NCBI GenBank assembly: GCA_015233115.1 | Contig: JADFYJ010000001.1 | Span: 195,084-259,083, forward strand | Direction: 5' to 3' | From: Candidatus Omnitrophota bacterium | GTDB lineage: Bacteria > Omnitrophota > Gorgyraeia > Zapsychrales > Zapsychraceae | Length of the DNA: 64,000 nucleotides | In this document: in pieces, positions 1,300 to 63,751 of the stretch | Position numbering within the stretch: the first letter of the stretch is position 1 | Layout: each line of letters starts with the position of its first letter | Made by a program: the position numbers and the translations under genes | The notes under the pieces: generated by a model | What the model was told of the DNA's origin: nothing | Database searches by the model: none | The model's input: only the letters and a program-made list of their open reading frames with translations

Positions 1300-1707
1300 G
1301 TTGATCCTTTGTAAGACCATTGTCCCTCCGTAGAACAAAGTCAATATAAAGTGGAAAACGCCTATATTCAAAAAACTCTTTTTTTTCTATGATGGGAACA
1401 GTTCCGGTTTTGTCTGGGGGGGCAAACAACATCTACGCGGAGTTTTTTGATGTTTAAAATGTTTTTATTGCTCCCCAAAAACACATCAGCGCTCGACGGA
1501 AAATTTTTTCCGTTGATTGCTGTTTTTTTTTGCCGCGCACAAACATATATTTTAGAAATATTATTGTCAAAAGGAGGACATATAGAGCTCATGACTCAAA
1601 TAAAACATAAATTTGTTATGTTGTAAAAATGGGTTGATGCTGGTGAATATACCACCCCAGCGCCCTAATTCTAAAAATCAAATTAAATGGATAAAATGAG
1701 GTGCTAT

Positions 1708-4434
1708 ATGAGTAAAAAATTAACTTTTGTGTTTTCACTAGCAATTTTATTTGCTATGTACATTTCCGCCTTGCCGACGCCGGTTATGGCCGGAGGTGTT
1801 CCTTTATCTGATGGACAAATGGATCAAATTGCAGCAGGTGAATGGGTTTTGGCCTCTGCCGCTACTACCAAAAATTCATTAAAAGTTAAAGATCAGTCAC
1901 AAAATACGATTAAAGGTATCAGTAACGCAAACAGTGTGGATAGTGCTGTTAATGGACAGACCAACGTCAGTAATGCTGTCGAAGGAGCTGTAGATATTAC
2001 ACAAAGCAATAATACTTCGGTGACTAATCGTGCAAAGCCAAAAGATACTTTTAGTCTTGATGCCTCCCACAAAACAGTTACCGCCGTTAATGAGAAGGGC
2101 ACGACTACCTATAATAATGTGACCACTTCAAAAATCGATAATTCTAGTGCTGAAACTAAATCAGTTTCTGATACGGAATCGTTAAATACTTCTTCTACAG
2201 ATAAGGCGAGTTCTTCACTGAATGAAACTTCAAATAAAGCGGACAGCCTTAAGACTGGTTTTTCTGATGTTGAAGTCAGTGGTTCTTCAGCAAGCACTAA
2301 TTCTGCAAGTGCCAGCAATTTTTCAAAAGATAAAAGCGCAAGTTCAGCAGAAAATTTTGATTTAGATAAAGGTAAATCTGCTTCTAGCGAAGCTTCCCAA
2401 AGTGCTAATGATGCATCGAAAAATACCGCTAGTGCGAATAACAGCGCTTCGTCTTCTGATAAATTTAATTTAGACGGAAGTTTGAACGCAGGCACAACTA
2501 GCGCATCACAAAGTGCTTCGAAAAGTGCTGACAGTGTAGCAGCAATTTCCAGCAAATCTTCAAGTGATTCTGCTGCAGCCAATGAAAATGCCTCAACTTC
2601 GGATAAAGCAAATTTGGATGGTAGTTTAAGCGCCAGCGAAGGAAATGCTTCACAGAGTGCTGCTCAAAGTGCGAAAAGTCAATCAGCCAATTCCAGCAAC
2701 TCAGCTAGCAATAGTGCTGCAGCCAATGAAAATGCTTCATCTATGGATAAAGCTAATTTGGACGGCAGTTTGAGCGCTGGATCTGCAACGGCATCGCAGA
2801 GTGCTTCAAATAAATCAGACAGTGTAGCTGCTAATGCCAGCAAATCGTCTAGCGATACTGCTGCTGCAAACAACAATGCGACATCATCGGACAAAGCTAA
2901 TGTAGATGGAAGTTTGTCAGCATCGAAGTCAGCAGCCTCACAAAGCGCAGCGCAAAATGCGGATTCATCGGCATCGAACAATAGCGCAGCTGATTCATCT
3001 TCGAGCACAAAAGATGCCAGTCTGAACGTAGCAGCTACAGGAACAAGCAATAAAACTGCCTCATCTTCATCTGATGCTGTTTCCCAGGATGGTGTGAGCA
3101 CGTCTCAAAAGGATGCTAGCGCCAATCAATCCGCTGCACCTGGTTCAGTCACATCAGGGTCAACATCTTCAACAGCAGCCACAACTGGCAATGATGAAAA
3201 TTCGGGTACTGTTACTCAGAATTCTGCCACAGACACAGCCAATTCATCAAAAACGGTTGGTGTTAATGCCTCAGGCACACTTGACACGACTAAGCAATCA
3301 GGGTCGCAATCAGCTGATTCTGCAGCCGCAGATAGTTCTGCTTCAAATTCATCAGCAGCATCTAAAAATAGCAATCTTGATGCTTCATTAAGTGCAAGTA
3401 AAGACAAAGAAGCTTCTAGCGGAGCAGCATCATCATCCGCAAGTCAGGATGCAGCAAATGCTTCATTGACAAAAGATAAAACAGCGTCAGATTCAGCTTC
3501 AGCATCGGATAATAAGAATCTTGATGCTTCATTAAGTACAAGCAAAGATAAAGAAGCAACCAGCCAATCAGCTTCATCTTCAGCTGATCAATCTGCAGCT
3601 AATGCGGCATCGGCTAAAGATGCATCTGCTTCAAATTCAGCATCAGCATCTGAGAGTAAAAACCTAAATGCGACTTTAACCACGAGCAAAGATAAGGAAG
3701 CATCTAGCGCATCAGCATCATCTTCAGCTGATCAATCAGCAGCTAATGCCTCTTTAACTAAAGATAAATCTGCTTCAGATTCCGCGTCAGCTTCTGATTC
3801 GAAAAATTTGAATGCAGCGTTAACTGTTGGAAAAGATAAAGAAGCTGCTAACGCTTCAGCTTCTGCATCTGATCAAGAAGCATCTTCTGCAAGTCAATCG
3901 GCAGACAAAAGTGCTTCTCAAGATAGCTTATCTGTTACCAAAGGCAAAAGTGCAAACTCAGCTTTATCCGTAAAAGATACGAAGAGCGATAATTCTGCTT
4001 CTGCATCACAGGATAGCGCTTCAAAAAATGTTCAAGCAACGGTAGATGCTTCAAAAACTGATAATAAAGCGAAAACTGAAACATCAAGTTCAGAAAATGA
4101 CGCTTCTTTAGCAGCCTCGAAAACAACAACCAAAGCTGAAAATGAAACAAATACAAAAGTCAAAACTGATACTGTCGATCAAGGTGTGATCGTTGATTCA
4201 GCAAAAAATAATACGAATACTGAAGATGATTCAGTACAAATTGATGAGACTAAGACTGGTTCAGTGACCAATGAATTAGTTGTCTCAGGCGGTTCGCAGT
4301 CAGACATTATGGCAGTCAGCAACTTGAACGCAGTTGGTTCAGCTGTAGCCATACAAGCTAACGTTGCTAATTCCAGCACTGTATCTGGAAATATTTCACA
4401 ATCCAACGTGGCTACCGTAGCAAATGGTATTTAG
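1708..4434 (+). CDS. Exported Ser/Ala/Asp/Lys-rich repeat protein (putative fibre or surface-layer subunit). Its termini are paralogous to those of the 4517..5392 protein.
   Basis: ATG at 1708 preceded by GAGGTG; the ORF track start at 1687 is in frame. N-terminal hydrophobic signal-like segment, then LSDGQMDQIAAG. Interior made of two families of imperfect tandem repeats of about 48 and 40 aa. C-terminal N/V/S/Q-rich segment (AVSNLNAVGSAVAIQANVANSS...) aligns with the C-terminus of the next protein. Confidence 0.7.
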   Translation: MSKKLTFVFSLAILFAMYISALPTPVMAGGVPLSDGQMDQIAAGEWVLASAATTKNSLKVKDQSQNTIKGISNANSVDSAVNGQTNVSNAVEGAVDITQSNNTSVTNRAKPKDTFSLDASHKTVTAVNEKGTTTYNNVTTSKIDNSSAETKSVSDTESLNTSSTDKASSSLNETSNKADSLKTGFSDVEVSGSSASTNSASASNFSKDKSASSAENFDLDKGKSASSEASQSANDASKNTASANNSASSSDKFNLDGSLNAGTTSASQSASKSADSVAAISSKSSSDSAAANENASTSDKANLDGSLSASEGNASQSAAQSAKSQSANSSNSASNSAAANENASSMDKANLDGSLSAGSATASQSASNKSDSVAANASKSSSDTAAANNNATSSDKANVDGSLSASKSAASQSAAQNADSSASNNSAADSSSSTKDASLNVAATGTSNKTASSSSDAVSQDGVSTSQKDASANQSAAPGSVTSGSTSSTAATTGNDENSGTVTQNSATDTANSSKTVGVNASGTLDTTKQSGSQSADSAAADSSASNSSAASKNSNLDASLSASKDKEASSGAASSSASQDAANASLTKDKTASDSASASDNKNLDASLSTSKDKEATSQSASSSADQSAANAASAKDASASNSASASESKNLNATLTTSKDKEASSASASSSADQSAANASLTKDKSASDSASASDSKNLNAALTVGKDKEAANASASASDQEASSASQSADKSASQDSLSVTKGKSANSALSVKDTKSDNSASASQDSASKNVQATVDASKTDNKAKTETSSSENDASLAASKTTTKAENETNTKVKTDTVDQGVIVDSAKNNTNTEDDSVQIDETKTGSVTNELVVSGGSQSDIMAVSNLNAVGSAVAIQANVANSSTVSGNISQSNVATVANGI

Positions 4435-11190: not shown

Positions 11191-11194
11191 AAAC

Positions 11195-11280
11195 TGTCAT
11201 TCCCGCGAAAGCGGGAATCCATAAAAAATTTTTAGATTTTTTTATTAATGGATCCCCGACTAAAGCTCTCGGGGATGACA
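11195..11280 (+). repeat. Inverted pair of ATTCCC-N8-GGGAAT-type hairpins (TGTCATTCCCGCGAAAGCGGGAATCCA ... TGGATCCCCGACTAAAGCTCTCGGGGATGACA) flanking an A/T spacer. Same family as 35674..35700.
   Basis: Read directly. There is a near-identical copy after the znuA-like gene. Confidence 0.6.
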
Positions 11281-33600: not shown

Positions 33601-33731
33601 TGGTCGGTGGCGTTACAGTTTCAACTTTCTTAACTTTATTTGTTGTGCCGTGCGCGTATGAACTATTCTCAAAAATCGAGCGCAAAAATTATAAAGAAGA
33701 AAAAAACGAAGAACAAAACACGTCACAATGA
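30630..33731 (+). CDS. RND efflux permease.
   Basis: 1033 aa; 12 TM helices and two large periplasmic loops; IVDDAIMVLENI motif. Confidence 0.9.
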   Translation: MTLSDISIKNPVFAWMLMLGILVFGFIGFQRLGVSQMPDVDFPIVSVSVTWEGAAPEVMETDVTDVLEDAVMSVEGIKDVTSVSKQGQSQLTIEFNLNRNIDAALQDVQTKIAQAQRNLPTDIDPPIVTKTNPEDQPIMWVTYSGDKPIKELSKYVFETLKDQFTAVPGVGTIQLGGYVDPNLRVWLNAKKMQDKEITVEDILGTINTQHVDQPAGYIDTGVKEINVRVYGEATTPEEFQNITIPQRVRGGPVWNNLQLKDIATVEDGLADIRRIARTSGQPCIGMGIIKQRGSNAVKVAEAVKQRMKDLENRLPANTKLNLVFDSTQFIKDSVNELKFNLLLSVLLTSMVCFFFLGSWTATLNVLLAIPTSVMGAFVVLYFLGFTINTFTMLGLSLVIGIIVDDAIMVLENISRYQEQGLARKAAAIIGARQITFAALAASIAILAIFIPVIFMEGIVGKFFYQFGVTISVAVMFSLLEALTIAPMRCSQFLDVGHTTRLGKVVDGFMHWLRSSYRSILAFLLNHPGKVLIVAILIFAGSLQLNKLIKKEFVPSQDQSRFIARLTTPLGSSLDTTNAVFKKAETFFLQKPEVDKIFASVGGSQVNQGIIFVTMKPRDQRPMINGHHETQLEFMENVRKPLNKIPGMQRAVIQDLSQSAFTAKRGFPVEFTVQGPDWDKLGVYSQELMKKMKESGTMSDIDTDYQLGMPELQIHPDRLKAAAHGVSIGSIADTINSMIGGLRVGKYTSNGKRYDIRVRLTGADRSKTEDIDNIWIRNQYGELVRLSDVTTAEVKPTLFSVTRASRQRAVSIFANPSQGHSQQEALDTVTKLAKTVLPQDYHVVLSGGAKAYKESFQGLIFTLILGIFVAYMVLATQFNSFLHPFTVLLALPFSVTGAFLALYLSGHSVNLYSMIGLILLMGIVKKNSILLVDFTNERRREGLNVKDALLEACPVRLRPILMTSIATVAAAIPLSLAIGPGSEVMVPMAVSVVGGVTVSTFLTLFVVPCAYELFSKIERKNYKEEKNEEQNTSQ

Positions 33732-33986
33732 CACAAAGTCACAAGGTCACAAAGGAAAACTTTGTAAAAAACGAAACGAGCAATAATTGACGTTAAAAAT
33801 GATCTTATTTAAAAATATAACAAAACAATATTACACGACGCTCTAGCAAAATGACGAATCCCATAAAAAATTTAATTTAATTTTGATATTTTTGTTTATT
33901 TAAATTTCGCGTAATGTGTTATTCTGTTTATCGTTTTATTAATCTTTACTACCCTTTGTGACTTTGTGTCCTTGTGACATTGTGAC
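33721..33986 (+). repeat. MITE-like element, copy A: terminal inverted repeats built from GTCACAA(G/A)G direct repeats, flanking an A/T-rich core.
   Basis: Left arm CGTCACAATGACACAAAGTCACAAGGTCACAAAGG overlaps the RND stop codon. Right arm CCTTTGTGACTTTGTGTCCTTGTGACATTGTGAC. Conserved sub-terminal AAAACTTTGTAAAAAACGAAAC and TTAATCTTTACTACC. Confidence 0.7.
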
Positions 33987-34030
33987 TTTTAAAAATTAAG
34001 CCAACCCTTAAAACAAAAGGATTCAAAGCT

Positions 34031-34687
34031 ATGGCTTTTACGGACCGGCTAAAAAGATGTTTTAAATTGCGTTTTGCCATTGTCTATCCATTCGCGATTT
34101 ACGCAGTTTTTTTCACCCATCCTGATGCGCAATCCATTTCACAGGGAATAGGATTTGTTGTTTTGGGATTATTGACCAGGCTCTGGTCTAATGGCTATGC
34201 CATTAAATTAGAGAAATTAACGACTTCCGGACCGTATGCTCATATTCGCCATCCTTTATATTTCGGCACATCACTCGTTCTTATAGGCTTTATCATTATG
34301 CTTAAAATGTATTTGGTGGGAATATTATTTTTCATCGTCGTAGTTTCTGTATATTTCCGCACCATTAAACAAGAAGAACAGATGCTGGAAGATAAATTTA
34401 AAGACGATTACCTTGATTATAAGAAAAAAGTTCCGGCATTTTATCCTGCTGTCCTGGCTTATTCAAAGGGAGAAAAGTGGCCCTTTAGTTTTGAACGGCT
34501 TATGAGAAGCAAAGAATATAAATCTGCCATTTGGGTTATTATTTTTATAATTTTTATTTATTTAAAAACTATCCTATTAGTACAAAAATTACCTATGAAT
34601 AATCGCTTATGGGCATTAGCTGCTATCGCTGTTTTGCTTGCCGCGACGGATATAACTGGGGAAATAATTAAAAAAGGTAAAAGATAG
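34031..34687 (+). CDS. ICMT/PEMT-family membrane methyltransferase.
   Basis: GPYAHIRHPLYFGTSLVLIG matches the isoprenylcysteine carboxyl / phospholipid methyltransferase motif. Multiple TM helices. Confidence 0.6.
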   Translation: MAFTDRLKRCFKLRFAIVYPFAIYAVFFTHPDAQSISQGIGFVVLGLLTRLWSNGYAIKLEKLTTSGPYAHIRHPLYFGTSLVLIGFIIMLKMYLVGILFFIVVVSVYFRTIKQEEQMLEDKFKDDYLDYKKKVPAFYPAVLAYSKGEKWPFSFERLMRSKEYKSAIWVIIFIIFIYLKTILLVQKLPMNNRLWALAAIAVLLAATDITGEIIKKGKR

Positions 34688-34748
34688 ACGTGGGACGAGG
34701 GATGATGGACGAAAAAGCGATTGCTCAAAAGCGAACAGCTAAAAAAAA

Positions 34749-35648
34749 ATGTTAAAAAAGACAATAAACCGCTCAATTTTTTATTTTGTTTTTTTTCTAT
34801 CTTCTATCGTCTATCTTCTATCGTCTATGACTTCACTTGTCTGCGCCCAAAAACCTCTGCGTATTGTTACTTCCTTTTATCCAATGTATATCATGGCGCT
34901 GAATGTAACTAAAGACATTCCTGGCGTTGTGGTTGAAAATTTAACTTCTTCCCAAACAGGTTGTTTGCATGATTATGCTCTGACGCCTGATGATATGAAA
35001 AAATTAACTGGTGCTAATTTATTTGTCGCTAACGGTGCTGGCATGGAAAATTTTTTAAACAATATAACAGCCCGCTATTCCCAGATTAAAATTGTCCAAT
35101 TAGCTGATGGTATTTCATTAATTAAAAACGGTAACGATATAAATCCGCATGTATGGACCAGCATTTCGAATGCGATTAAAGAAGTGGAAAATTTAAGCAA
35201 AGCGCTTGAAATTGCTGATCCCAGTCACCAAAAGGCTTATAGCGATAACGCTCATGCATATGTTATAAAATTAAAAAAAATACAGACTCTCATGCATAAA
35301 GAACTTTATATGTATATTGGGGAAAAAATCATTACTTTTCACGAAGCTTTTCCATATTTTGCCCAAGAATTTGGGTTGAATATCGCGGCGGTAATAGAGA
35401 GGGAGCCTGGTTCTGAGCCCAGCGCCAAGGAATTGGCGGATACAATTGATTTGGTTAAAAAAACCGGCATCAAGGCTTTATTTACCGAACCACAGTATCC
35501 GGCACTGGCAGCTCAAACGATTGCGCAAGAAACCGAAGCAAAAATTTTTACTTTAGATCCAGCAGTTACAGGGCCAGAAGAACCCGATGCATATATAAAC
35601 ATCATGACAAAAAATTTAAAAGTTTTGAAATCGGCGTTTACACAGTAA
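34749..35648 (+). CDS. Metal (Zn/Mn) ABC transporter substrate-binding protein, TroA/ZnuA family.
   Basis: Signal peptide. Cluster 9 SBP length and motifs (HVWTS, ITFHEAFPYFAQEFGL, ALFTEPQ). Followed by ATPase and permease genes. Confidence 0.8.
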   Translation: MLKKTINRSIFYFVFFLSSIVYLLSSMTSLVCAQKPLRIVTSFYPMYIMALNVTKDIPGVVVENLTSSQTGCLHDYALTPDDMKKLTGANLFVANGAGMENFLNNITARYSQIKIVQLADGISLIKNGNDINPHVWTSISNAIKEVENLSKALEIADPSHQKAYSDNAHAYVIKLKKIQTLMHKELYMYIGEKIITFHEAFPYFAQEFGLNIAAVIEREPGSEPSAKELADTIDLVKKTGIKALFTEPQYPALAAQTIAQETEAKIFTLDPAVTGPEEPDAYINIMTKNLKVLKSAFTQ

Positions 35649-35673
35649 TGTATTAAATATTTTTATATATCAC

Positions 35674-35700
35674 TGTCATTCCCGCGAAGGCGGGAATCCA
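35674..35700 (+). repeat. ATTCCC-N8-GGGAAT hairpin repeat (TGTCATTCCCGCGAAGGCGGGAATCCA), same family as 11195..11221.
   Basis: Near-identical to the copy after the enolase gene. Sits just after the stop codon of the upstream gene. Confidence 0.6.
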
Positions 35701-38468: not shown

Positions 38469-38664
38469 TCCTATATCTTTAGGGCCCCGAAGGATATATT
38501 TTAAGCCGAATTTCTGACCTTCAAGGAAGCGGGAGATACCAGCAGGGGGGTGAATCTCATGTAACATGAGAGGGATAGCTGCCATCCTAACCCATCAACT
38601 AATCTCGCAGGCTAGGCAGTATTTTTTTATTAGTTCAAGCTTTAAATATTTTTTGTGGGGGATA

Positions 38665-39438
38665 ATGAGTCATTTAATTGCTTTAATATTGGGTATGGTG
38701 GAAGGAATTACTGAATTTCTACCAATTTCTTCTACTGGGCATTTGATTCTTACCTCAAAATTACTTCACCTTGCTGATTCCGAATTTTTAAAAAGTTTTG
38801 AAATTATTATTCAATTAGGTGCTATTTTATCTGTTGTAGTTCTATATTGGAAATCTTTTTTTACAAACCTCGCTACTGTCAAACGCATTGCAGTTGCTTT
38901 TTTGCCGACCGCAGTTATTGGTTTCATATTTTACAAGCTCATTAAAAAATTTTTATTAAGCAATAGTGACATTGTTATTTGGTCCTTGTTGCTGGGTGGC
39001 ATATTTCTGATCATATTTGAAATGCTTCATAAGGAAAATACGGATTCTTCGCAGGGAATACTGGCCATTTCTTATAAACAAGCATTTTTTATAGGCATAT
39101 TTCAATCCTTCGCTATGATACCCGGCGTTTCCCGTTCTGCTGCCACAATCATTGGAGGGATGTTTTTGGGTATAAGCCGTAAGACTATCGTTGAGTTTTC
39201 CTTTTTATTAGCTGTACCAACTATGGGAGCCGCAGTAGGGTTAGATCTTATAAAAAATTCGCCTAGCTTCGCTGCTGAACAATTTGGATTTTTAGCTACC
39301 GGATTCATTGTTTCGTTTATTGTCGCGCTCGCGGCTATAAAATTTTTGTTATCTTATATCCAAAAAAATAATTTTATTCCTTTTGGTTTTTACCGCATTA
39401 TTGTAGCCATCATATTTATCACTTTCTTCCGATTTTAA
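38665..39438 (+). CDS. uppP: Undecaprenyl-diphosphatase.
   Basis: The N-terminal motif GMVEGITEFLPISSTGHLIL is the BacA/UppP signature, with a second motif PGVSRSAATI. Start at the ATG at 38665; the ORF-track start is upstream in non-coding sequence. Confidence 0.9.
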   Translation: MSHLIALILGMVEGITEFLPISSTGHLILTSKLLHLADSEFLKSFEIIIQLGAILSVVVLYWKSFFTNLATVKRIAVAFLPTAVIGFIFYKLIKKFLLSNSDIVIWSLLLGGIFLIIFEMLHKENTDSSQGILAISYKQAFFIGIFQSFAMIPGVSRSAATIIGGMFLGISRKTIVEFSFLLAVPTMGAAVGLDLIKNSPSFAAEQFGFLATGFIVSFIVALAAIKFLLSYIQKNNFIPFGFYRIIVAIIFITFFRF

Positions 39439-49237: not shown

Positions 49238-49240
49238 AAA

Positions 49241-49423
49241 GGTCACAAGGACACAAAGTCACAAGGACACAAAGTCACAAGGTCACAAAGGTAAAATAAT
49301 TATTAAAATGCGATTAACCAAAAACATGAATGATTTTGACATGAAAGAAAATAATTGTTTTTTAAATATTTTTTTATTTTTATGTTTATTCGTTGTTTTA
49401 CGTGTGACCTTGTGACTTGTGGC
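49241..49423 (+). repeat. MITE-like element, copy B: GTCACAAGG-repeat terminal inverted repeats.
   Basis: Left arm GGTCACAAGGACACAAAGTCACAAGGACACAAAGTCACAAGGTCACAAAGG begins 4 nt after the hcp stop. Right arm is CGTGTGACCTTGTGACTTGTGG. Confidence 0.65.
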
Positions 49424-49436
49424 TTTTCAATAAAAA

Positions 49437-51560: not shown

Positions 51561-51608
51561 AATTGTGACAATGTAACAATGTGGCATTGAAAAATCGATT
51601 ATTGTAAA

Positions 51609-51705
51609 GCGCGCGGATTGGGCGGTTAGCATTTAAACCGAATCCTTCGCTCAAACAACCTTGGCGAAGCGCCAAGGAAACTCGCTCGGGGATTCAGTTT
51701 AAAAG
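51609..51705 (+). repeat. Roughly 95-nt structured repeat, copy 1. Conserved TCCTTCGCTCAAACA - GAAG hairpin - AACTCGCTCGGGGA with compensatory stems.
   Basis: Aligns with 58465..58555. The inner stem CCTTGGCG/CGCCAAGG and outer stem GAATCC/GGATTC differ in sequence from copy 2 but keep their pairing. Confidence 0.5.
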
Positions 51706-51775
51706 TTAACCTTGTGTTTGGGCACGCGGTTTTCTATTTTTTACATTGTCATTGTTCCTCTGTCAGGATAAAAAA

Positions 51776-55395: not shown

Positions 55396-55447
55396 AGCAA
55401 TACTTGTAGGGACAGGTCCCCGACCTGTCCGTAAAAAGTAAACCCAT

Positions 55448-56842
55448 ATGAAACCAAAAATCACAATTAAAACCATACCTGCCGACCGATTCACGCCGCT
55501 GGTGGTATTTAAAAAATTAGCGGGAAAAGCTCTGCTGGAATCAGCCGTTCTAGAAATCGGGAAGAGCCGTTATTCCATTATTCTGGTTGAAGAAGCTTTC
55601 CGCCTAATTTTAGATAAAAACGGTGTTCATTGCCTTGAAAACGGTAAAAAGCGCGCCATCACCCGCGACCGTAAAAAATTTCTCGAACTCGTCGAAGAGG
55701 CAGGGAAAAAAGTGCGGACCCAGGAAAATTTTTCCATTCCAATCCCCGCGGCTGGCTTAGGCTACCTGGGCTATGAAACGGCCATGCTGTTTGATAAAAT
55801 CAATCTGGCAAAACAGCAGGATGAATTAAATCTACCGGACAGCATTTTTATGTTTGGTTCCATTTTTGCCATATTTGATCACTATAAATCCGAATTACAT
55901 CTGGTGGCCATTGATCAGCAAGGCTCGGTTAATGCTAAAAACAAATTGGAGGGATTGGCTTTAAGATTGTTGGATGATGATTTCCGCGCCTATAAATCGA
56001 ACGATGCGCATTTTGAATATTCAGCAGATATCGAAGCTGGTAAACAACAATTTATTTCCGGCGTCAAAACTATAAGGGATCATATCATTGCCGGCAATTT
56101 AGTGCAGGCGGTCTTATCCCGTAGAGTTGACGTTAAAACACATTTACCCGCCATTGAAGCTTACAGCCGGTTACGCCGAGAAAATCCTTCTCCATATTTA
56201 TTCTATTTGGATTTTGATGATTTTCAATTATTAGGCGCGTCGCCTGAACTCATGGTTTCTTTATCCGGAGATATTGCCACTATTAAACCTATTGCCGGAA
56301 CCAGACGCAGAGGCAAAGACCGCGCTGAAGATGTAGCTTTAGAGAAAGAATTGCTCGCCGATGAAAAAGAACGAGCTGAACATTTAATGCTGGTTGATTT
56401 GGCCCGCAATGATTTAGGGCGAGCGGCCGCATCAGGAAAAGTGACACCTGTCCATCTTTATGGCGTTGAACGTTATGCTCATGTTATGCACATTGTATCG
56501 GAAATAGAAGCGCCGTTACGTAAAGATCAAACGGCGTGCGATCTGATCAAAGCGACTTTTCCTGCCGGTACAGTATCCGGAGCGCCTAAAATCATGGCCA
56601 TGCAGATTGTTTCACAAATTGAAAAAACCAAACGCGGACCATACGCGGGATTAATTGGACATTTTGACGTCAATGGCAATTTCGAATCATGTATCACGAT
56701 CCGTTCATACATTCATAAAAATGACCATTATTATATTCAGGCAGGGGCAGGAATTGTTTATGATTCTGTGCCGGAAAAAGAATTCGAAGAAACAGTTTAT
56801 AAATCCAAAGCGCTGATCAAAGCCTTGGGAGTAAAAATATGA
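55448..56842 (+). CDS. trpE: Anthranilate synthase component I.
   Basis: [13 protein letters not shown] and [27 protein letters not shown] chorismate-binding motifs. About 464 aa. Confidence 0.9.
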
Positions 56843-58431
56843 TTCTCATGATTGATAATTATGATTCATTTACCTATAACGTGGTCCAGCTGATCAGTAA
56901 ATTGGGTTATACAGTAAAAACTGTGCGTAACGACGAGATCACAATTAAAGAAATTGAAAAATTAAAGCCTTCGCATATTGTAATATCTCCCGGGCCAGGT
57001 TATCCCAAAGACGCGGGGATCAGTCTTAAAGTCATTAAATATTTTGCTGGAAAAATTCCGATTCTTGGCGTTTGCTTAGGGCATCAATGTATTATTGAAG
57101 CGTTTGGCGGCAAAATTATTTCTGCCGGTAAAATCGTGCACGGCAAAACCTCCAAAATCATTCATGACAGCAAAGGTCTTTTTCGCAATATTCCTCAGAG
57201 TCTGGATGTAGTCCGGTATCATTCTCTGGCCGGTGATCCTGAAGCTATGCCTGAATGCCTGGAAACCACAGCCCAGACAGAAGACGGCACTATCATGGGC
57301 GTGCGGCATAAAGATTACCAAATTGTGGGTGTACAATTTCATCCAGAATCAATCGGCACTCAAAAAGGTGAAGAGATAATGAAAAACTTTTTTCATTATC
57401 GCAGTGAAGAAGCGCAAGCTGTTAAATTGATTACAAAGGTTTCCCGCGACGAAAATCTGGATGCCAAAGAGAGTTATCACATGATGGATGAAATCACTTC
57501 CGGTGAATTAGCAGATAGTCAGCTCGGAACATTTTTAGGCGCATTGGCTGTCAAAGGCATTACTCCGGTAGAACTCAGTAGTTTTGTGCAATTGTTGCGT
57601 GACAAAGCCGGAGTGAAAACTTCGATCAGGGGTGCCTTAGATACATGCGGGACTGGCGGTGACGGAAAACACACGTTTAACATCTCAACTGCTGCGGCAT
57701 TATTATGCGCGTTTTCCGGCATCAAAGTTGCTAAACACGGTAACCGCGCTATCAGCTCTAAGTCCGGCAGTTTTGATTTTTTAAATAGTTTAGGAATCAA
57801 TACCCAAGGCGACATTGTTGAAAACATTAAATCCCTGAATAAAAATAATTTCGCGTTCTTTTTCGCGCCGAATTATCATTCTGCCATGAAGTATGTGGCT
57901 AAAGTCCGGCAGGAAATAAAGATCCGCACAGTTTTTAACATGATCGGCCCTTTGGCAAATCCGCTGGCATTAGATTATCAACTCGTCGGTATTTTTGATC
58001 CAAAATTGCTTGATCTGTTTGCTGAGTCTATGAAACGACTTGGCAGGAAACACGCGATGGTGGTTCACTCCACTGACGGCTTAGATGAAATCAGCATATC
58101 CGCAAAAACATTAGTGAAAGAATTAATGCGTGATGGCACAATCATTTCTTATGAAATAAACCCGGCTGATTTTGGCATCAAAAATTATAAATTGTCCGAC
58201 ATAGAAGGCGCTTCAGCTAATGACAATGTGGAATTATTTTATAAAATTATTTCCGGCAAAAAACTTACGCATAAAGAAACTGCCGTGAAAATCGCCATAG
58301 CCTTAAATGCCGGAGCAGCGATGTATATTTGTGAGTTAAGTCCAACGATTAAAGATGGGTATAAATTAGCGCTTAAAAAAATTGAAGATAAAAAATTTAT
58401 TTTATATTTGAATCATTTAAAAAATTCTTAA
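56839..58431 (+). CDS. trpGD: Bifunctional anthranilate synthase component II (glutamine amidotransferase) / anthranilate phosphoribosyltransferase.
   Basis: N-terminal class I GATase (GVCLGHQ). C-terminal TrpD motifs (DTCGTGGDGKHTFNISTAAA, KHGNRAISSKSGS). 4-nt overlap with trpE. Confidence 0.9.
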   Translation: MILMIDNYDSFTYNVVQLISKLGYTVKTVRNDEITIKEIEKLKPSHIVISPGPGYPKDAGISLKVIKYFAGKIPILGVCLGHQCIIEAFGGKIISAGKIVHGKTSKIIHDSKGLFRNIPQSLDVVRYHSLAGDPEAMPECLETTAQTEDGTIMGVRHKDYQIVGVQFHPESIGTQKGEEIMKNFFHYRSEEAQAVKLITKVSRDENLDAKESYHMMDEITSGELADSQLGTFLGALAVKGITPVELSSFVQLLRDKAGVKTSIRGALDTCGTGGDGKHTFNISTAAALLCAFSGIKVAKHGNRAISSKSGSFDFLNSLGINTQGDIVENIKSLNKNNFAFFFAPNYHSAMKYVAKVRQEIKIRTVFNMIGPLANPLALDYQLVGIFDPKLLDLFAESMKRLGRKHAMVVHSTDGLDEISISAKTLVKELMRDGTIISYEINPADFGIKNYKLSDIEGASANDNVELFYKIISGKKLTHKETAVKIAIALNAGAAMYICELSPTIKDGYKLALKKIEDKKFILYLNHLKNS

Positions 58432-58464
58432 GATTACGCATGCTATAGCTTAAGAAAATATCTG

Positions 58465-58555
58465 GAGCGCAACGGGCGACGTTTCAACCAAGTCCTTCGC
58501 TCAAACAGCTGAGCCGAAGCGGCTCAGAACTCGCTCTGGGACTCGGTTTCCACTC
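58465..58555 (+). repeat. Roughly 95-nt structured repeat, copy 2 (see 51609..51705), in the trpGD-trpB intergenic region.
   Basis: GAGCGCAACGGGCGACGTTTCAACCAAGTCCTTCGCTCAAACAGCTGAGCCGAAGCGGCTCAGAACTCGCTCTGGGACTCGGTTT. Confidence 0.5.
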
Positions 58556-58634
58556 TGCCCTGAGCAAATTGAATGCGCTTGGGACCGGCATGCTGTATGT
58601 TTAAAATAATTATTTCTATTTTAAAGGTTAATAA

Positions 58635-59843
58635 ATGTCAAAATATTTCGGACAATTTGGCGGTCAATATACTGGCGAAGTTTTAAAACCAGCTTTAGCT
58701 GAGCTTGAAGCCGCGTTTTTAAATATTTTGCCGACCGAAGAGTTTCAGAAAGAATATCATATTTTACTGCGTGATTACGTCGGACGTCCTACGCCGCTAT
58801 ATTTCGCGGAACGGACCACCAAAGACTTGAATGGCGCAAAAGTTTATATCAAATTAGAAGGACTGGCCAATACTGGCGCGCATAAGATTAACAATGCTTT
58901 AGGGCAAGTTTTATTAGCCCAAAAAATGGGAAAGACCCGGGTCATTGCGGAAACCGGAGCAGGACAACATGGTGTGGCCACAGCCGCAGCCGCAGCCAAA
59001 CTTGGACTGGCCTGCGAAGTATTCATGGGAGAAGTTGATGTTGCCCGCCAACAGCCAAATGTTTTTTTAATGAAACAATACGGTGCGAAAGTGACGCCGG
59101 TTTCTGATGGTACACGCACGCTTAAAGACGCGGTCAACCGCACCTTAAAAGAATGGGCAGGTTGTTCCTCGGACACATTATACATTTTGGGTTCAGCTTT
59201 AGGCCCTTATCCCTATCCGGATATGGTCCGCACATTTCAGCAAATTATTGGTCAGGAAATCCGCCAATCAATTTTAGAAAGGGAAGGGCGTTTACCCGAT
59301 ATGCTGATTGCCTGTTGCGGCGGAGGTTCTAATTCTATCGGCACATTTACGCCATTTATAAATGACACAGTTTCTCTTGTCGCGGTAGAGGCAGGCGGAA
59401 AGGGAAAACATTTAGGCGATCACGCGGTTCGCATGAATGGTAACGGCCATCTAGGAATTATTGAAGGCTACAAATCATTTTTTATACAAAATGGCGAAGG
59501 ACAAGTTTTACCGACCCATTCTATTTCAGCTGGTTTAGATTACGCTGGCATCGGACCAGAATTAGCCTTTTTAGGAGAGAAGGGCAGAATTAAATTCGAA
59601 AGCGCGACTGACACGGAAGTTTTAAACGCGTACCAATATTTTGCCCAAAAAGAAGGTTTATTATTCGCCATGGAATCTGCTCATGCCGCGGCCTATGCTT
59701 TGCGAATAGTTCCCAAATTGACCAAAGAAGCTATCGTCTGCATCACCATGTCTGGACGAGGCGATAAAGATATTTTTATTACGGCGAAAGAATTGTATAA
59801 AGCAGAATGGATTAAATTCTTAAAAAATGAATGTGAAAAATAA
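58635..59843 (+). CDS. trpB: Tryptophan synthase beta chain.
   Basis: GGQYTGE...RPTPLY...HKINNALGQ...GAGQHG PLP-fold signatures. Confidence 0.92.
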   Translation: MSKYFGQFGGQYTGEVLKPALAELEAAFLNILPTEEFQKEYHILLRDYVGRPTPLYFAERTTKDLNGAKVYIKLEGLANTGAHKINNALGQVLLAQKMGKTRVIAETGAGQHGVATAAAAAKLGLACEVFMGEVDVARQQPNVFLMKQYGAKVTPVSDGTRTLKDAVNRTLKEWAGCSSDTLYILGSALGPYPYPDMVRTFQQIIGQEIRQSILEREGRLPDMLIACCGGGSNSIGTFTPFINDTVSLVAVEAGGKGKHLGDHAVRMNGNGHLGIIEGYKSFFIQNGEGQVLPTHSISAGLDYAGIGPELAFLGEKGRIKFESATDTEVLNAYQYFAQKEGLLFAMESAHAAAYALRIVPKLTKEAIVCITMSGRGDKDIFITAKELYKAEWIKFLKNECEK

Positions 59844-59864
59844 AATGTGATAAAAGATGCTGTT

Positions 59865-59993
59865 GTAGGGGCGATCTCCTGATCGCCCGCACTATAAAAG
59901 ATTTATAAATTATCATTTCGGTTTTTTTTGTTTGTATTTTTGAAATAAAAAAGCGAATATTTTGTAAACGGGCGATCAGGAGATCGCCCCTAC
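59865..59993 (+). repeat. Long inverted repeat, GTAGGGGCGATCTCCTGATCGCCCG ... CGGGCGATCAGGAGATCGCCCCTAC, flanking an A/T-rich 79-bp core.
   Basis: 25-bp arms that are exact reverse complements. Each arm is also internally palindromic (GGCGATC-TCCT-GATCGCC). Confidence 0.7.
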
Positions 59994-60140
59994 GACCAAG
60001 GACGCAATGTCCGCGTAGTGCTGGAAGCTCCTGCGAGCAGTGCGACCAAGGACGCAATGTCCGCGTAGTGCTGGAAGCTCCTGCGAGCAGTGCGACCAAG
60101 GACGCAATGTCCGCGTAGTGCTGAAGCTCCTGCGAATGGC
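59994..60140 (+). repeat. 50-bp direct tandem repeat, about 2.9 copies (GACCAAGGACGCAATGTCCGCGTAGTGCTGGAAGCTCCTGCGAGCAGTGC).
   Basis: Units at 59994-60043 and 60044-60093 are identical. The third unit is degenerate, with a 1-nt deletion and a diverged end. Confidence 0.8.
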
Positions 60141-60157
60141 ACAAAAATATATTAAAA

Positions 60158-60937
60158 TTGTCAAAAACACAAAATATGACACAAAAGAATTTATCTATGC
60201 GTATTATGTCGCACTTAGTTGCCGGTTTTCCAAATCACGACGGATTTCTTCAGGCTCTAAAAGCTTTGAAAGACGGCGGCGCAGATACTTTAGAATTGCA
60301 GATTCCATTTTCTGATCCTACAGCTGACGGTCCATCCATTACTTTTGCCAATGAAGAAGCAATACGACAGGGATTTCATGTGCCGCAAATTTTTGACTAC
60401 ATCAAAGAAGCCCAAAAAATCGGGTTTGAACGAATAGTCGTCATGACCTACGCGAATATTCCTTTTGTTTATGGGATAAAAAAATATGTTCAGGACATGA
60501 AAAAAGCTGGCGTGACTGCTATTTTAGCGCCCGATTTACCCTTGGACGACGAAGAAGGATTTTATCAAGCATCTTTTGACACAGGCATTGACCCTATGCC
60601 GGTTGCTGTCGTCAATATGTCTGCCGCGCGTTTACAATTAATAAAACAAAAACCATTCAAAAAAATTTACGTGGCCATAAGAGCAGGGACAACCGGAAAA
60701 CAAACAGTATTAGATGAAAATATTAAAAATATTCTTCAACAGCTCAAGGACTATGAAATTTACGCGGGTTTCGGCATTAGAACCAATCAACAAATTCAAG
60801 AACTTTCCAAATACGCTGACGTCTCAGTAGTGGGTTCTTTTTTCACAGAAACCATTATTAATGCCGTCCAACAAAAATCCGATATCTACACCCAAGTCAA
60901 AGCCGCGATTTCAAGCTTGATAAACCCGATATCTTAA
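60158..60937 (+). CDS. trpA: Tryptophan synthase alpha chain.
   Basis: GADTLELQIPFSDPTADGPSIT matches the TrpA motif ELG(I/V)PFSDP(L/V)ADGP. Confidence 0.85.
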   Translation: MSKTQNMTQKNLSMRIMSHLVAGFPNHDGFLQALKALKDGGADTLELQIPFSDPTADGPSITFANEEAIRQGFHVPQIFDYIKEAQKIGFERIVVMTYANIPFVYGIKKYVQDMKKAGVTAILAPDLPLDDEEGFYQASFDTGIDPMPVAVVNMSAARLQLIKQKPFKKIYVAIRAGTTGKQTVLDENIKNILQQLKDYEIYAGFGIRTNQQIQELSKYADVSVVGSFFTETIINAVQQKSDIYTQVKAAISSLINPIS

Positions 60938-60954
60938 TTTACAATTAAACTTCT

Positions 60955-61221
60955 ATGTTAGGCCTTAAAGAATTAATTCAAGTATTTGTGCATATTAAGG
61001 ACGAGAAAGAGATGAAGCAACTCTTTCATGAAATCTTTACTGAAAAAGAGCGGGAAACTTTATCTGACCGCTGGCTTTTGATGAAAGAAATTCACAACAA
61101 TACTCCACAACGGAAAATCGCGGAAAAATTTCACATGAGTTTATGCAAAATCACCCGCGGAGCAAAAGTTTTACACGAAAAAAAATCTATTTGTAAAAAA
61201 ATATTGGATGCGAAAAATTAA
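60955..61221 (+). CDS. TrpR/YerC-family small DNA-binding protein.
   Basis: EKERETLSDRWLLMKEI...QRKIAEKFHMSLCKITRGAKVL aligns with the TrpR/YerC HTH, including the (A/S)TITRGS motif. Confidence 0.6.
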   Translation: MLGLKELIQVFVHIKDEKEMKQLFHEIFTEKERETLSDRWLLMKEIHNNTPQRKIAEKFHMSLCKITRGAKVLHEKKSICKKILDAKN

Positions 61222-61222
61222 C

Positions 61223-62962
61223 ATGGAACTTTTATCAGGTAATGAAGCCATCAGCCGTGGTGCCTACGAAGCAGGCGTCACTTTAGCCGCGGGATATCCG
61301 GGCACACCATCAACGGAAATTCTAGAAGATATCGTCAAATATAAAGACGCGATCTATGCGGAGTGGTCTCCTAATGAAAAAGTCGCCTTCGAAGTCGCAT
61401 CTGCCGCAGCCATGTCTGGCGCGCGATCTTTAGTCACCATGAAACACGTGGGCTTAAACGTGGCTGCTGATCCTTTGATGACTTTGGCCTATATTGGTGT
61501 TAAAGGCGGCATGGTGGTCGTAGTTGCCGATGATCCGGGCATGCATTCGTCTCAAAATGAACAAGACAGCCGTCATTACGCGCGTTTCGCGAAAGTGCCG
61601 ATGCTCGAGCCATCTGACAGCCAGGAAGCCAAAGATTTTATGCTGAAAGCCTATGAGCTTTCTGAGCAATTTGGAACACCAGTCATTTTACGTACTGAAA
61701 CCCGCATCAGCCATTCACGCAGTTTGGTTAATCTGGGAAACCGCCGTCTGGCAAACAAGGTTGATTTTATAAAAGATCAAAGTCAGTTTGTCATGGTTCC
61801 GATGTGGGCCAGAGGACGTCGCGTGCAATTGGAAGGACGTCTCAAAAAAATGCAGGAAAATGCCTGCCAATCTGACCTGAACAGAATGGAAATGAATGAC
61901 ACATCTTTCGGAATTATTACTTCTGGCGTTACTTATCAATACGTCAAAGAAGTCTGGCCCAATGCGTCAATTTTGAAACTTGGTTTTGTTTATCCTTTTC
62001 CTGACGAATTAATCCGTCAATTTGCGTCAAAAGTTAAAACCATACTGGTTGTCGAACAACTGGATAATTTTATCGAAGAACATGTCAAATCTTTAGGTAT
62101 CGCATGCCAGGGAAAAAATTATATTCCCAATATCGGCGAACTATCGCCATCAGTTTTATCTGACGTAAAAGCCAAAATGGAATCAACTTCAACCGCACAA
62201 GTACCTTTCAAAAATATTGCGGAACAACTTCCCGGCCGGCCGCCGGTGTTATGCGCAGGATGCCCGCACCGTGGAATATTCCATGCCTTAAAAAACCATG
62301 ATGTCGTTGTTGCAGGCGATATTGGTTGTTACAGTTTAGGAACTTTTAAACCATTGTCGCAATTGGATATTATTTTGTGCATGGGCGGCGGCATATCCAT
62401 GGCACACGGCATTCAAAAAGCTAGCAATGCCAAAAAAGTCGTCGGAGTTATCGGAGATTCAACGTTTTTCCATTCGGGCATAACAGGTTTGGTTGATATT
62501 GTTTATAACAAAGGCACATCAACCATTATCGTGCTGGATAACCGTATTACAGGCATGACCGGCCATCAGGAAAACCCGGGGAGCGGACTCACTTTAATGG
62601 GAGAATCAACACACGCCATTTCAATTGCGGATATAGGACGAGCATGCGGAGTAAAGCGTATTTTTGAAATCAATCCCTACGACCAGAAACATACCCAGCA
62701 AATCATTGCACAAGAGATCGCGGTTGATGAACCATCTTTGATCATTTCCAAAGCGGCCTGTGTTTTGCATGTAAAAAAACCGGTCAGCCCACAACGGTAT
62801 ATTGATCAGGATACATGCAAAAATTGCCGTCAGTGTTTAAAATTAGGATGCCCAGCCATAGAAGCAGGCGAAGGCAAGCCGCATGTTAATCCCTACACCT
62901 GCATGGGTTGTACACTGTGTCAGCAGGTTTGCAAGTTTGATTCAATACACGAGATAAAGTAA
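61223..62962 (+). CDS. iorA: Indolepyruvate ferredoxin oxidoreductase alpha subunit.
   Basis: TPP-binding 2-oxoacid:ferredoxin oxidoreductase N-terminal motifs. C-terminal 2x[4Fe-4S] (CKNCRQCLKLGCPAI, CMGCTLCQQVC). Start at the ATG at 61223, just after the preceding stop. Confidence 0.88.
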   Translation: MELLSGNEAISRGAYEAGVTLAAGYPGTPSTEILEDIVKYKDAIYAEWSPNEKVAFEVASAAAMSGARSLVTMKHVGLNVAADPLMTLAYIGVKGGMVVVVADDPGMHSSQNEQDSRHYARFAKVPMLEPSDSQEAKDFMLKAYELSEQFGTPVILRTETRISHSRSLVNLGNRRLANKVDFIKDQSQFVMVPMWARGRRVQLEGRLKKMQENACQSDLNRMEMNDTSFGIITSGVTYQYVKEVWPNASILKLGFVYPFPDELIRQFASKVKTILVVEQLDNFIEEHVKSLGIACQGKNYIPNIGELSPSVLSDVKAKMESTSTAQVPFKNIAEQLPGRPPVLCAGCPHRGIFHALKNHDVVVAGDIGCYSLGTFKPLSQLDIILCMGGGISMAHGIQKASNAKKVVGVIGDSTFFHSGITGLVDIVYNKGTSTIIVLDNRITGMTGHQENPGSGLTLMGESTHAISIADIGRACGVKRIFEINPYDQKHTQQIIAQEIAVDEPSLIISKAACVLHVKKPVSPQRYIDQDTCKNCRQCLKLGCPAIEAGEGKPHVNPYTCMGCTLCQQVCKFDSIHEIK

Positions 62963-62970
62963 ATCATGAA

Positions 62971-63147
62971 AAAGTCACAAAGTCACACGTCACAAGGTCA
63001 CAAAGGAAAATTTTGTTTAAAAACAAAACAAAAAGCGAATGATTAAATTTTGTTTTTTTAGTTTATTTATTTTTCTTATTGTTTGAGGTGTTATTTTTTT
63101 AATCTTTATTAGCCTTTGTGACATTGTGACTTTGTGTCCTTGTGACT
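62971..63147 (+). repeat. MITE-like element, copy C, lying entirely between iorA and iorB.
   Basis: Left arm AAAGTCACAAAGTCACACGTCACAAGGTCACAAAGG. Right arm CCTTTGTGACATTGTGACTTTGTGTCCTTGTGAC. The sub-terminal sequences match copy A. Confidence 0.7.
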
Positions 63148-63166
63148 TTTTAAAAAGGATCTGTTT

Positions 63167-63751
63167 ATGTCAAACGATACTATCGTTAGCATTGTTATCG
63201 CCGGTGTCGGCGGCCAGGGGATTTTGTTGGCTAGTGACATTACTGCCTTGGCAGCACTCAATGCCGGCTTTGATGTTAAAACCAATGAAGTTCATGGCAT
63301 GGCGCAAAGAGGAGGGTCAGTTATCGGGCAAATCCGCTATGGAAAAAAAGTTTACAGCCCATTAGTGAAAAAAGGCACAGCTCAAGTTTTAGCAGGGTTA
63401 GAACGGATTGAAATTTTGCGTTACGCGGAATATCTCGCGAAAGACGGATTGGCGGTCGTGAATAGCCAAATGATCATACCTGTTACAGTTTCTATGGGCG
63501 TATCAAAATATCCGGCTGACGCAAAACAATTACTTGAATCTACTTTTCCCAGATTAGTTTATTTCGATGCCGGCGTAGAAGCCGCAAAATTAGGCAACAT
63601 TAAAGCCGCCAATGTGGTGCTTTTAGGCGCCATATCCAATGGAATCGGTCTGCCATTAGAAGCATGGACTGGAGCCATCACCAAACGCGTCCCGCAAAAA
63701 TTCCTTGATCTCAACATTAAAGCGTTTATGGCAGGAAGAAATTACAAATAA
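63167..63751 (+). CDS. iorB: Indolepyruvate ferredoxin oxidoreductase beta subunit.
   Basis: IVIAGVGGQGILLASDI...EVHGMAQRGGSV is the IorB/OFOR gamma-like signature. Confidence 0.85.
   Translation: MSNDTIVSIVIAGVGGQGILLASDITALAALNAGFDVKTNEVHGMAQRGGSVIGQIRYGKKVYSPLVKKGTAQVLAGLERIEILRYAEYLAKDGLAVVNSQMIIPVTVSMGVSKYPADAKQLLESTFPRLVYFDAGVEAAKLGNIKAANVVLLGAISNGIGLPLEAWTGAITKRVPQKFLDLNIKAFMAGRNYK

Follow-up and report, generated by a model that had tools for sequence, protein, structure and literature searches.

A probable GTAG-tagged REP dimer and a separate 50-bp tandem duplication in the trpB–trpA spacer of an Omnitrophota genome

The trp operon and its trpB–trpA spacer

The stretch of DNA analysed here, 64 kb in length and referred to as the window throughout, carries an operon at 55448-63751 which consists of trpE, a trpG-trpD fusion (trpGD), trpB, trpA, a TrpR-like gene, iorA and iorB, and which lacks both trpC and trpF. 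The closest relative (L001) and four further Omnitrophota relatives (L112-L115) are also without trpC and trpF at this locus, and L116 has a trpCF fusion located between trpGD and trpB. The trpA gene of the window is intact, with all of the residues that are invariant among six Omnitrophota TrpA proteins present. Details of the genes and of the features found in the spacer between trpB and trpA are presented in Table 1.

Table 1. Genes of the trp operon and features described in and near the trpB–trpA spacer of the window
Feature	Position	Strand	Basis or remark
Second GTAG-tagged palindrome	55404-55431	+	TTGTAG-GGACAGGTC-CCC-GACCTGTCC-G; hairpin scan; -12.2 kcal/mol, z -6.5
trpE	55448-56842		Pfam
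trpG-trpD fusion	56839-58431		Pfam
trpB	58635-59843	+	Pfam PALP, E 1.7e-37; 100% identical to NCBI 'Candidatus Omnitrophica bacterium' TrpB
Probable REP unit 1	59865-59889	+	GTAG + GGGCGATC-TCCT-GATCGCCC-G; RNA fold -16.4 kcal/mol
AT-rich dimer core	59890-59968	.	79 nt between the REP units
Probable REP unit 2	59969-59993	-	GTAG read as CTAC at 59990-59993; head-to-head dimer
50-bp tandem array	59993-60142	+	TRF; abuts GTAG end of REP unit 2
Putative ancestral trpA leader (last ~45 nt of spacer)	60131-60175	+	DNA alignment to L001 11441-11475
trpA	60158/60176-60937	+	Pfam Trp_syntA, E 1e-51
TrpR-like gene	60955-61221		Pfam
iorA	61208-62962		Pfam
iorB	63167-63751		Pfam

The length of the spacer depends on the start codon of trpA, for which there are three in-frame candidates (TTG 60158, ATG 60176 and ATG 60197). 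The 314 bp given in a preliminary description of this DNA is correct when counted to the first of them, and becomes 332 bp if translation starts at ATG 60176, as the alignment with the sister genome L001 suggests. We regard ATG 60176 as the probable start on the basis of this alignment, and the ambiguity is a caveat for the annotation of the gene. Before trpA, the window (60131-60200) has AAAAACAC at the place where L001 (11441-11500) has the Shine-Dalgarno-like AAAGGTTAAT.

The first feature of the spacer begins 21 nt downstream of the trpB stop codon (59841-59843) and is the first arm, GTAGGGGCGATCTCCTGATCGCCCG, of the inverted repeat that had been described before. Its two 25-nt arms are each self-complementary and are exact reverse complements of one another (25/25 positions), and the match can be extended to 59862-59889 and 59969-59996 with 27 of 28 positions paired. 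Allowing up to three mismatches, the 21-nt core of the arm is found at just these two sites in the window and at none in 100 shuffled sequences. Each arm is composed of GTAG followed by an 8-bp stem, formed by GGGCGATC and GATCGCCC, with a 4-nt loop, and the GTAG ends of the two arms point outward. As DNA, the arms fold with -9.9 and -9.6 kcal/mol at z of about -5 (-4.9 for the first unit), and the whole dimer (59862-59996) folds with -43 kcal/mol as DNA (z -11) and with -69 kcal/mol as RNA (z -13). The A/T core reported earlier between the arms is 79 nt in length and has a GC content of 17.7%, in comparison to 68% in the arms, 61% in the array and 39% in the window. No significant similarity was detected between the core and the dimer spacers of other genomes, or between the core and the other repeat elements of the window (z at most 3.9).

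The tandem repeat of 2.9 copies of a 50-bp unit, also part of the preliminary description, is borne out by TRF (59993-60135, period 50, 98% matches, score 279), with the array running on to 60142. Array and second arm overlap by one base (59993). Copies 1 and 2 are identical, whereas copy 3 lacks one nucleotide and departs from them over its final 7 nt. Such head-to-tail, near-identical units are the arrangement seen in VNTRs and minisatellites. The period of 50 bp is not divisible by three. The identity of the first two copies implies a recent duplication. A significant fold of the 50-bp unit was found on neither strand (z -0.4 to -0.9), and the unit aligns neither to the arm nor to the second GTAG-tagged palindrome of the window. 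A degenerate REP had been considered for it, as it contains GTAG and a hairpin of 6/8 pairs, but was rejected on account of the same fold scores and of the missing alignment to the arm. A CRISPR array was discarded from the sequence, in which unique spacers are absent between the repeats. A 24-mer of the unit gave no match in JGI metagenome contigs and IMG/VR, and a blastn search of the spacer against plasmids and phages returned a chance AT-rich match alone.

We read the array as what looks like a young minisatellite, the source DNA of which lies outside the REPs, and its behaviour as a VNTR is plausible. It may have arisen when a 50-bp GC-rich sequence abutting the dimer was lately duplicated head-to-tail, by slipped-strand replication or by unequal recombination, and the neighbouring hairpin could have favoured this by stalling replication. 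Tandem arrays beside REPs and REPINs are known in P. fluorescens, where the REP itself is repeated (PMC3116915). The array is a candidate marker for strain typing.

The preliminary description had named three spurious ORFs; three are indeed present on the minus strand (110, 68 and 50 aa in length), and two ORFs on the plus strand cross the repeats as well. For the 110-aa ORF, a search of 5.8 billion proteins found no homologue. The repeats breed spurious reading frames, which is a second caveat for annotation.

The spacer in comparison with related genomes

The expectation that trpB and trpA are contiguous or overlapping agrees well with the four relatives L112-L115, where the gap is -14 bp in L114 and L115 (an overlap), 26 bp in L112 and 49 bp in L113 (short spacers). 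A gap of 138 bp is present in L116 and contains a different hairpin, the arms of which consist of tandem 8-mers. L001, in which TrpB is 89% identical, has a gap of 269 bp. Comparison of these junctions, as had been proposed, did not reveal an identical spacer in any relative: the spacer is unconserved, and the closest relative carries a different inverted-repeat element of 148 bp of its own. This element shows no similarity to the insert of the window. What the two junctions have in common is confined to the ~45 nt before trpA, which are homologous in the window and in L001, and the foreign material stops at the same point in both. Since the gaps of the relatives differ and the last ~45 nt are homologous, the large spacer can be read as a derived, lineage-specific structure placed on a short ancestral leader; the insert itself is, as judged from these alignments, lineage-specific.

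The source of the sequence is a metagenome-assembled genome (MAG), and an assembly artefact, in which chimeric GC-rich reads or a mis-resolved repeat came to lie between trpB and trpA, has to be weighed at this point. Short-read assemblies are prone to copy-number errors in tandem arrays, the arms and the array have 61-68% GC in a genome of 39% GC, and repeats identical to the arm occur in gut Actinomycetota and Clostridia. Against this, the same operon continues on both flanks in the right order and on the right strand, the core between the arms is host-like in composition, the spacer ends in 45 nt that are homologous to the leader of the sister genome, and GC-rich tagged palindromes occur at four more intergenic sites of the window. 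An exact inverted pair is also not what a chimera is expected to produce. We consider an artefact very improbable.

Identity and distribution of the GTAG-tagged palindrome

REPs are non-autonomous palindromic repeats. Their spread is attributed to RAYT, which would mobilise them as hairpins of single-stranded DNA without duplication of the target site. RAYT is a tyrosine HUH transposase similar to those of IS200/IS605. The GTAG superfamily of REPs has been defined by units of 20-40 bp with stems of 5-13 bp and an unpaired GTAG (Di Nocera et al. 2013, PMC3733652). Members of this superfamily mainly follow an ORF and lie in gaps between genes that are co-directional or convergent; among their dimers the head-to-head (HH) arrangement with GTAG outside predominates, and the spacers are mostly 20-100 bp in length (PMC3733652). 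They have been recorded in Proteobacteria, Cyanobacteria, Chloroflexi and the PVC superphylum (PMC3733652). Omnitrophota is a member of the PVC group.

The arms of the trpB–trpA spacer resemble these repeats in each of the above respects. They are 25-nt palindromes with an 8-bp stem and a 4-nt loop, which falls within the size range of 20-40 bp, and the unpaired GTAG is present at the end of the palindrome (59865-59868). The site is extragenic and follows the stop codon of trpB, upstream of the co-directional trpA, and the two units form an HH homodimer with a spacer of 79 nt, within the range of 20-100 bp. The differences lie in the host, a 39% GC Omnitrophota MAG, in the presence of one dimer in 64 kb, and in the extremely AT-rich nature of the spacer. 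We know of no earlier description of REPs in Omnitrophota.

The dimer also shares features with REPINs, in which an inverted doublet and its spacer are predicted to form one long hairpin in single-stranded DNA or mRNA (Bertels & Rainey 2011, PMC3116915). The same fold is predicted here, and the arms are identical to one another, as is expected of a replicative unit. In contrast to REPINs, which by definition form populations associated with a RAYT gene, the present element is known from one doublet in the 64-kb window, and the array next to it repeats flanking non-REP DNA and not the REPIN itself.

For the distribution of the palindrome, the pattern GTRGGGGCGATC-N4-GATCGCCC was scanned against one genome per GTDB species. 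It is present in more than 110 stretches of GTDB genomes, and a few would be expected by chance according to our estimate. The copies are clustered within genomes: one Phototrophicaceae MAG has at least 37 loci and Gordonibacter sp. Marseille-P2775 (LT827128.1) has at least 17, and among the matches listed a goat-ileum Clostridia MAG and Anaerolineae MAGs have several loci each. Loops differ by host group among the matches listed (CTTG, TCCT/TCCA and CCCT). The identical 25-28-mer is found in Gordonibacter, in an Oscillospiraceae MAG and in a Christensenellales MAG. Dimers are formed in several ways: as HH homodimers with GC-rich spacers of 55-110 nt in Gordonibacter, as HH heterodimers with a second palindrome in Chloroflexota, and as tail-to-tail (TT) dimers in Clostridia. 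The clustering within genomes together with the dimers indicates classic REP/BIME populations, with the arms of the window in the same sequence class. The repeats of Gordonibacter, Clostridia and Chloroflexota (GTAG-GGGCGATC-N4-GATCGCCC) are identical to the window arms in tag and stem, and those of Gordonibacter agree also in the loop TCCT and in the HH layout; they differ in their spacers, which are GC-rich and bear no relation to the core of the window, and in their hosts, which belong to other phyla than Omnitrophota. It is the arm alone that is common, and neither the core nor the 50-bp unit gave a match in the loci of other phyla. No gene recurs beside the palindrome copies in the loci that were fetched. 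The arm had no match in a scan of a viral collection, and a metagenome scan for the arm in an AT-rich context returned one irrelevant GC-rich contig.

A conventional MITE, 135 bp in length and derived by deletion from an insertion sequence with a DDE transposase, with terminal inverted repeats of 25-28 bp, an AT-rich core and the array as a separate event, would account for the size of the element and for its layout of terminal inverted repeats around a core. Other inverted-repeat elements with AT-rich cores at intergenic or intra-operon positions of the window (33722-33989, 49239-49425 and 62971-63149) are in keeping with it. The terminal inverted repeats are, however, not accompanied by a direct target-site duplication, as the flanks of the dimer (...GATGCTGTT and GACCAAGG...) have no common direct repeat. 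This makes mobilisation of the HUH/RAYT type a better fit than a DDE-type MITE. Furthermore, each arm is itself a GTAG-tagged hairpin, the arm is found elsewhere alone or in dimers whose spacers are unrelated and differ in length, as is usual for REPs and not for MITEs, and no transposase is located nearby. A MITE is therefore unlikely in our view. An integron attC site does not agree with the arm ends, which by inspection do not fit GTTRRRY.

Taken together, the spacer is likely a composite, in which a head-to-head dimer of GTAG-tagged REPs, of the REP/BIME type and similar to a REPIN, and a separate 50-bp tandem duplication lie upstream of a short ancestral trpA leader. Among the candidates of the preliminary description, the footprint of a mobile element is the one best supported, through the head-to-head arrangement of the GTAG-REP dimer and through a palindrome that is multicopy and dimer-forming in other phyla. 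The dimer would have been inserted as a single-stranded hairpin mobilised by RAYT, a step which presumes mobility in the host genome. Several findings count against the assignment to REPs. Many copies are a hallmark of REPs, and the window contains one dimer of the arm type in 64 kb, its copies amounting to the two arms and one stem variant (55404-55431). The core is AT-rich like the host and the arms have 68% GC, and the moving unit may have been either the dimer or single REPs. The 50-bp unit is unrelated to REPs, and the 21-kb syntenic stretch of the sister genome holds no such palindrome. No RAYT-like gene was found among ten small ORFs of the window, a scan of the window and 117 loci with a RAYT motif gave no match, and no RAYT candidate was found between inverted arm pairs in the Gordonibacter loci.

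The dimer and the array are best seen as a known kind of selfish intergenic repeat rather than a new regulatory device, and they reveal no new mechanism. Their presence suggests that selfish palindromes of the REP type reach an uncultivated AT-rich phylum of the PVC group and can split the tightly coupled trpB–trpA pair. That one REP class is common to several phyla makes it a tractable question whether RAYT/REP systems have spread horizontally or have converged.

Possible effects on expression and other repeats of the window

In the preliminary description, a transcriptional attenuator decoupling trpA had been among the candidates. This idea is not supported by the spacer, which has no U-tract terminator, no promoter-like site and no Rfam family. 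Terminator-like sites are absent from 58300-60400, and in place of the U-tract of an intrinsic terminator the arms continue into CACTAT and GACCAA. A sigma-70-like promoter could not be found on the coding strand of the spacer, and the search against Rfam 15 gave nothing at the gathering threshold and, below it, generic long-hairpin (plant miRNA precursor) matches alone. A T-box, a trp leader, a riboswitch or another Rfam RNA was thus rejected, as were an intrinsic terminator and a sigma-70 promoter.

Alternatively, the insert might not be a mobile repeat but a structure that arose in place to regulate or process the trp operon, such as an attenuator, a cleavage site of RNase III or a region with an internal promoter, and that is under selection to set the TrpB:TrpA ratio. 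This could explain why it sits between genes that are normally translationally coupled, why its hairpin is so stable (-69 kcal/mol, z -13), and why the junction of the sister genome also has a structured inverted-repeat element of 148 nt (z -4.9). However, apart from the missing terminator, promoter and Rfam signals, there is no sequence conservation with the element of the sister genome, four relatives are without such a spacer, the arm is identical to dispersed repeats of unrelated phyla, and the perfect array copies point to a very recent change. We hold such a structure to be quite unlikely. Equally doubtful is a broader scheme in which one REP class (GTAG-GGGCGATC-N4-GATCGCCC) has spread with its transposase over at least five phyla including Omnitrophota, and in which this lineage has recruited the dimer together with the expandable array as a module for RNA processing or attenuation inside the operon, with the length of the array tuning the output of trpA against that of trpB.

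A REP dimer in this position may nevertheless affect the message. On the trp mRNA it would form either two local 8-bp hairpins or one stem of ~28 bp (-69 kcal/mol). An RNA stem of ~28 bp is a plausible substrate of a double-strand RNase. The hairpin would accordingly be open to two fates, in that it could shield the upstream trpE-trpGD-trpB mRNA from 3'-to-5' decay or be cut by such an RNase; read-through into trpA would be lowered, and the translational coupling of trpA to trpB would be lost. As a functional model, REP325 of the yjdMN operon of E. coli seems suitable, which acts as a partial, partly Rho-dependent terminator and as a stabiliser of the upstream mRNA (bioRxiv 10.64898/2026.03.23.713779). 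As in the present operon, the REPs of REP325 are located between two genes of one operon. Its function has been shown by experiment, in E. coli only. By this analogy, probable effects of the dimer in the window are protection of the trpE-trpB message upstream of it, less read-through into trpA and the loss of the translational coupling of trpA.

The trpB–trpA spacer is one instance of a general colonisation of the window by several families of small repeats in intergenic DNA. Some of these families interrupt junctions within operons at which the genes are tightly spaced in the sister genome. The second GTAG-tagged palindrome (Table 1) is located 17 nt upstream of trpE and has the TTGTAGGG...CCG frame in common with the arms, around a different stem. 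A further palindrome tagged with TGTC (CTGTC-ATTCCCGCGAARGCGGGAAT-CC) is present in two copies (11193-11221 and 35672-35700), which are identical at 28/29 nt, and resembles the CGTC-1 / Neisseria dRS3 class (Di Nocera et al., PMC3733652).

Two copies of a GC-rich element that forms a long imperfect hairpin were found at 51612-51735 and 58462-58585, with 77% identity over 69 nt. The strands of the internal loop, TTCGCTCAAACA and AACTCGCTC, are conserved in both, and 8 of the 28 predicted pairs are compensatory. The element has no match in Rfam. The spacers in which the copies reside are absent from the sister genome L001, where the gap between the TonB-receptor and S4 genes is 22 bp and trpGD overlaps with trpB.

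The inverted-repeat elements at 33722-33989, 49239-49425 and 62971-63149 have arms made of tandem 7-8-mers, e.g. (GTCACAAR)n ... (YTTGTGAC)n, around AT-rich cores, and further elements with such arms lie at 34680-34830 and 51564-51770. The element at 62971-63149 parts iorA from iorB, which overlap in L001. The same architecture of tandem arms, built from other octamers, is seen in three spacers of the trp operon of L116 (740-880, 3926-4000 and 5209-5347).

Apart from these elements, a c-di-AMP riboswitch (RF00379) was identified at full length at 38494-38628 with 69 bits, upstream of the ORF 38566-39438. Tandem repeats of 144 bp are present at 2458-2916 and 3330-3885 with 71-76% matches, and since both lie inside an ORF of 915 aa (1687-4434) they probably represent a repetitive coding region.
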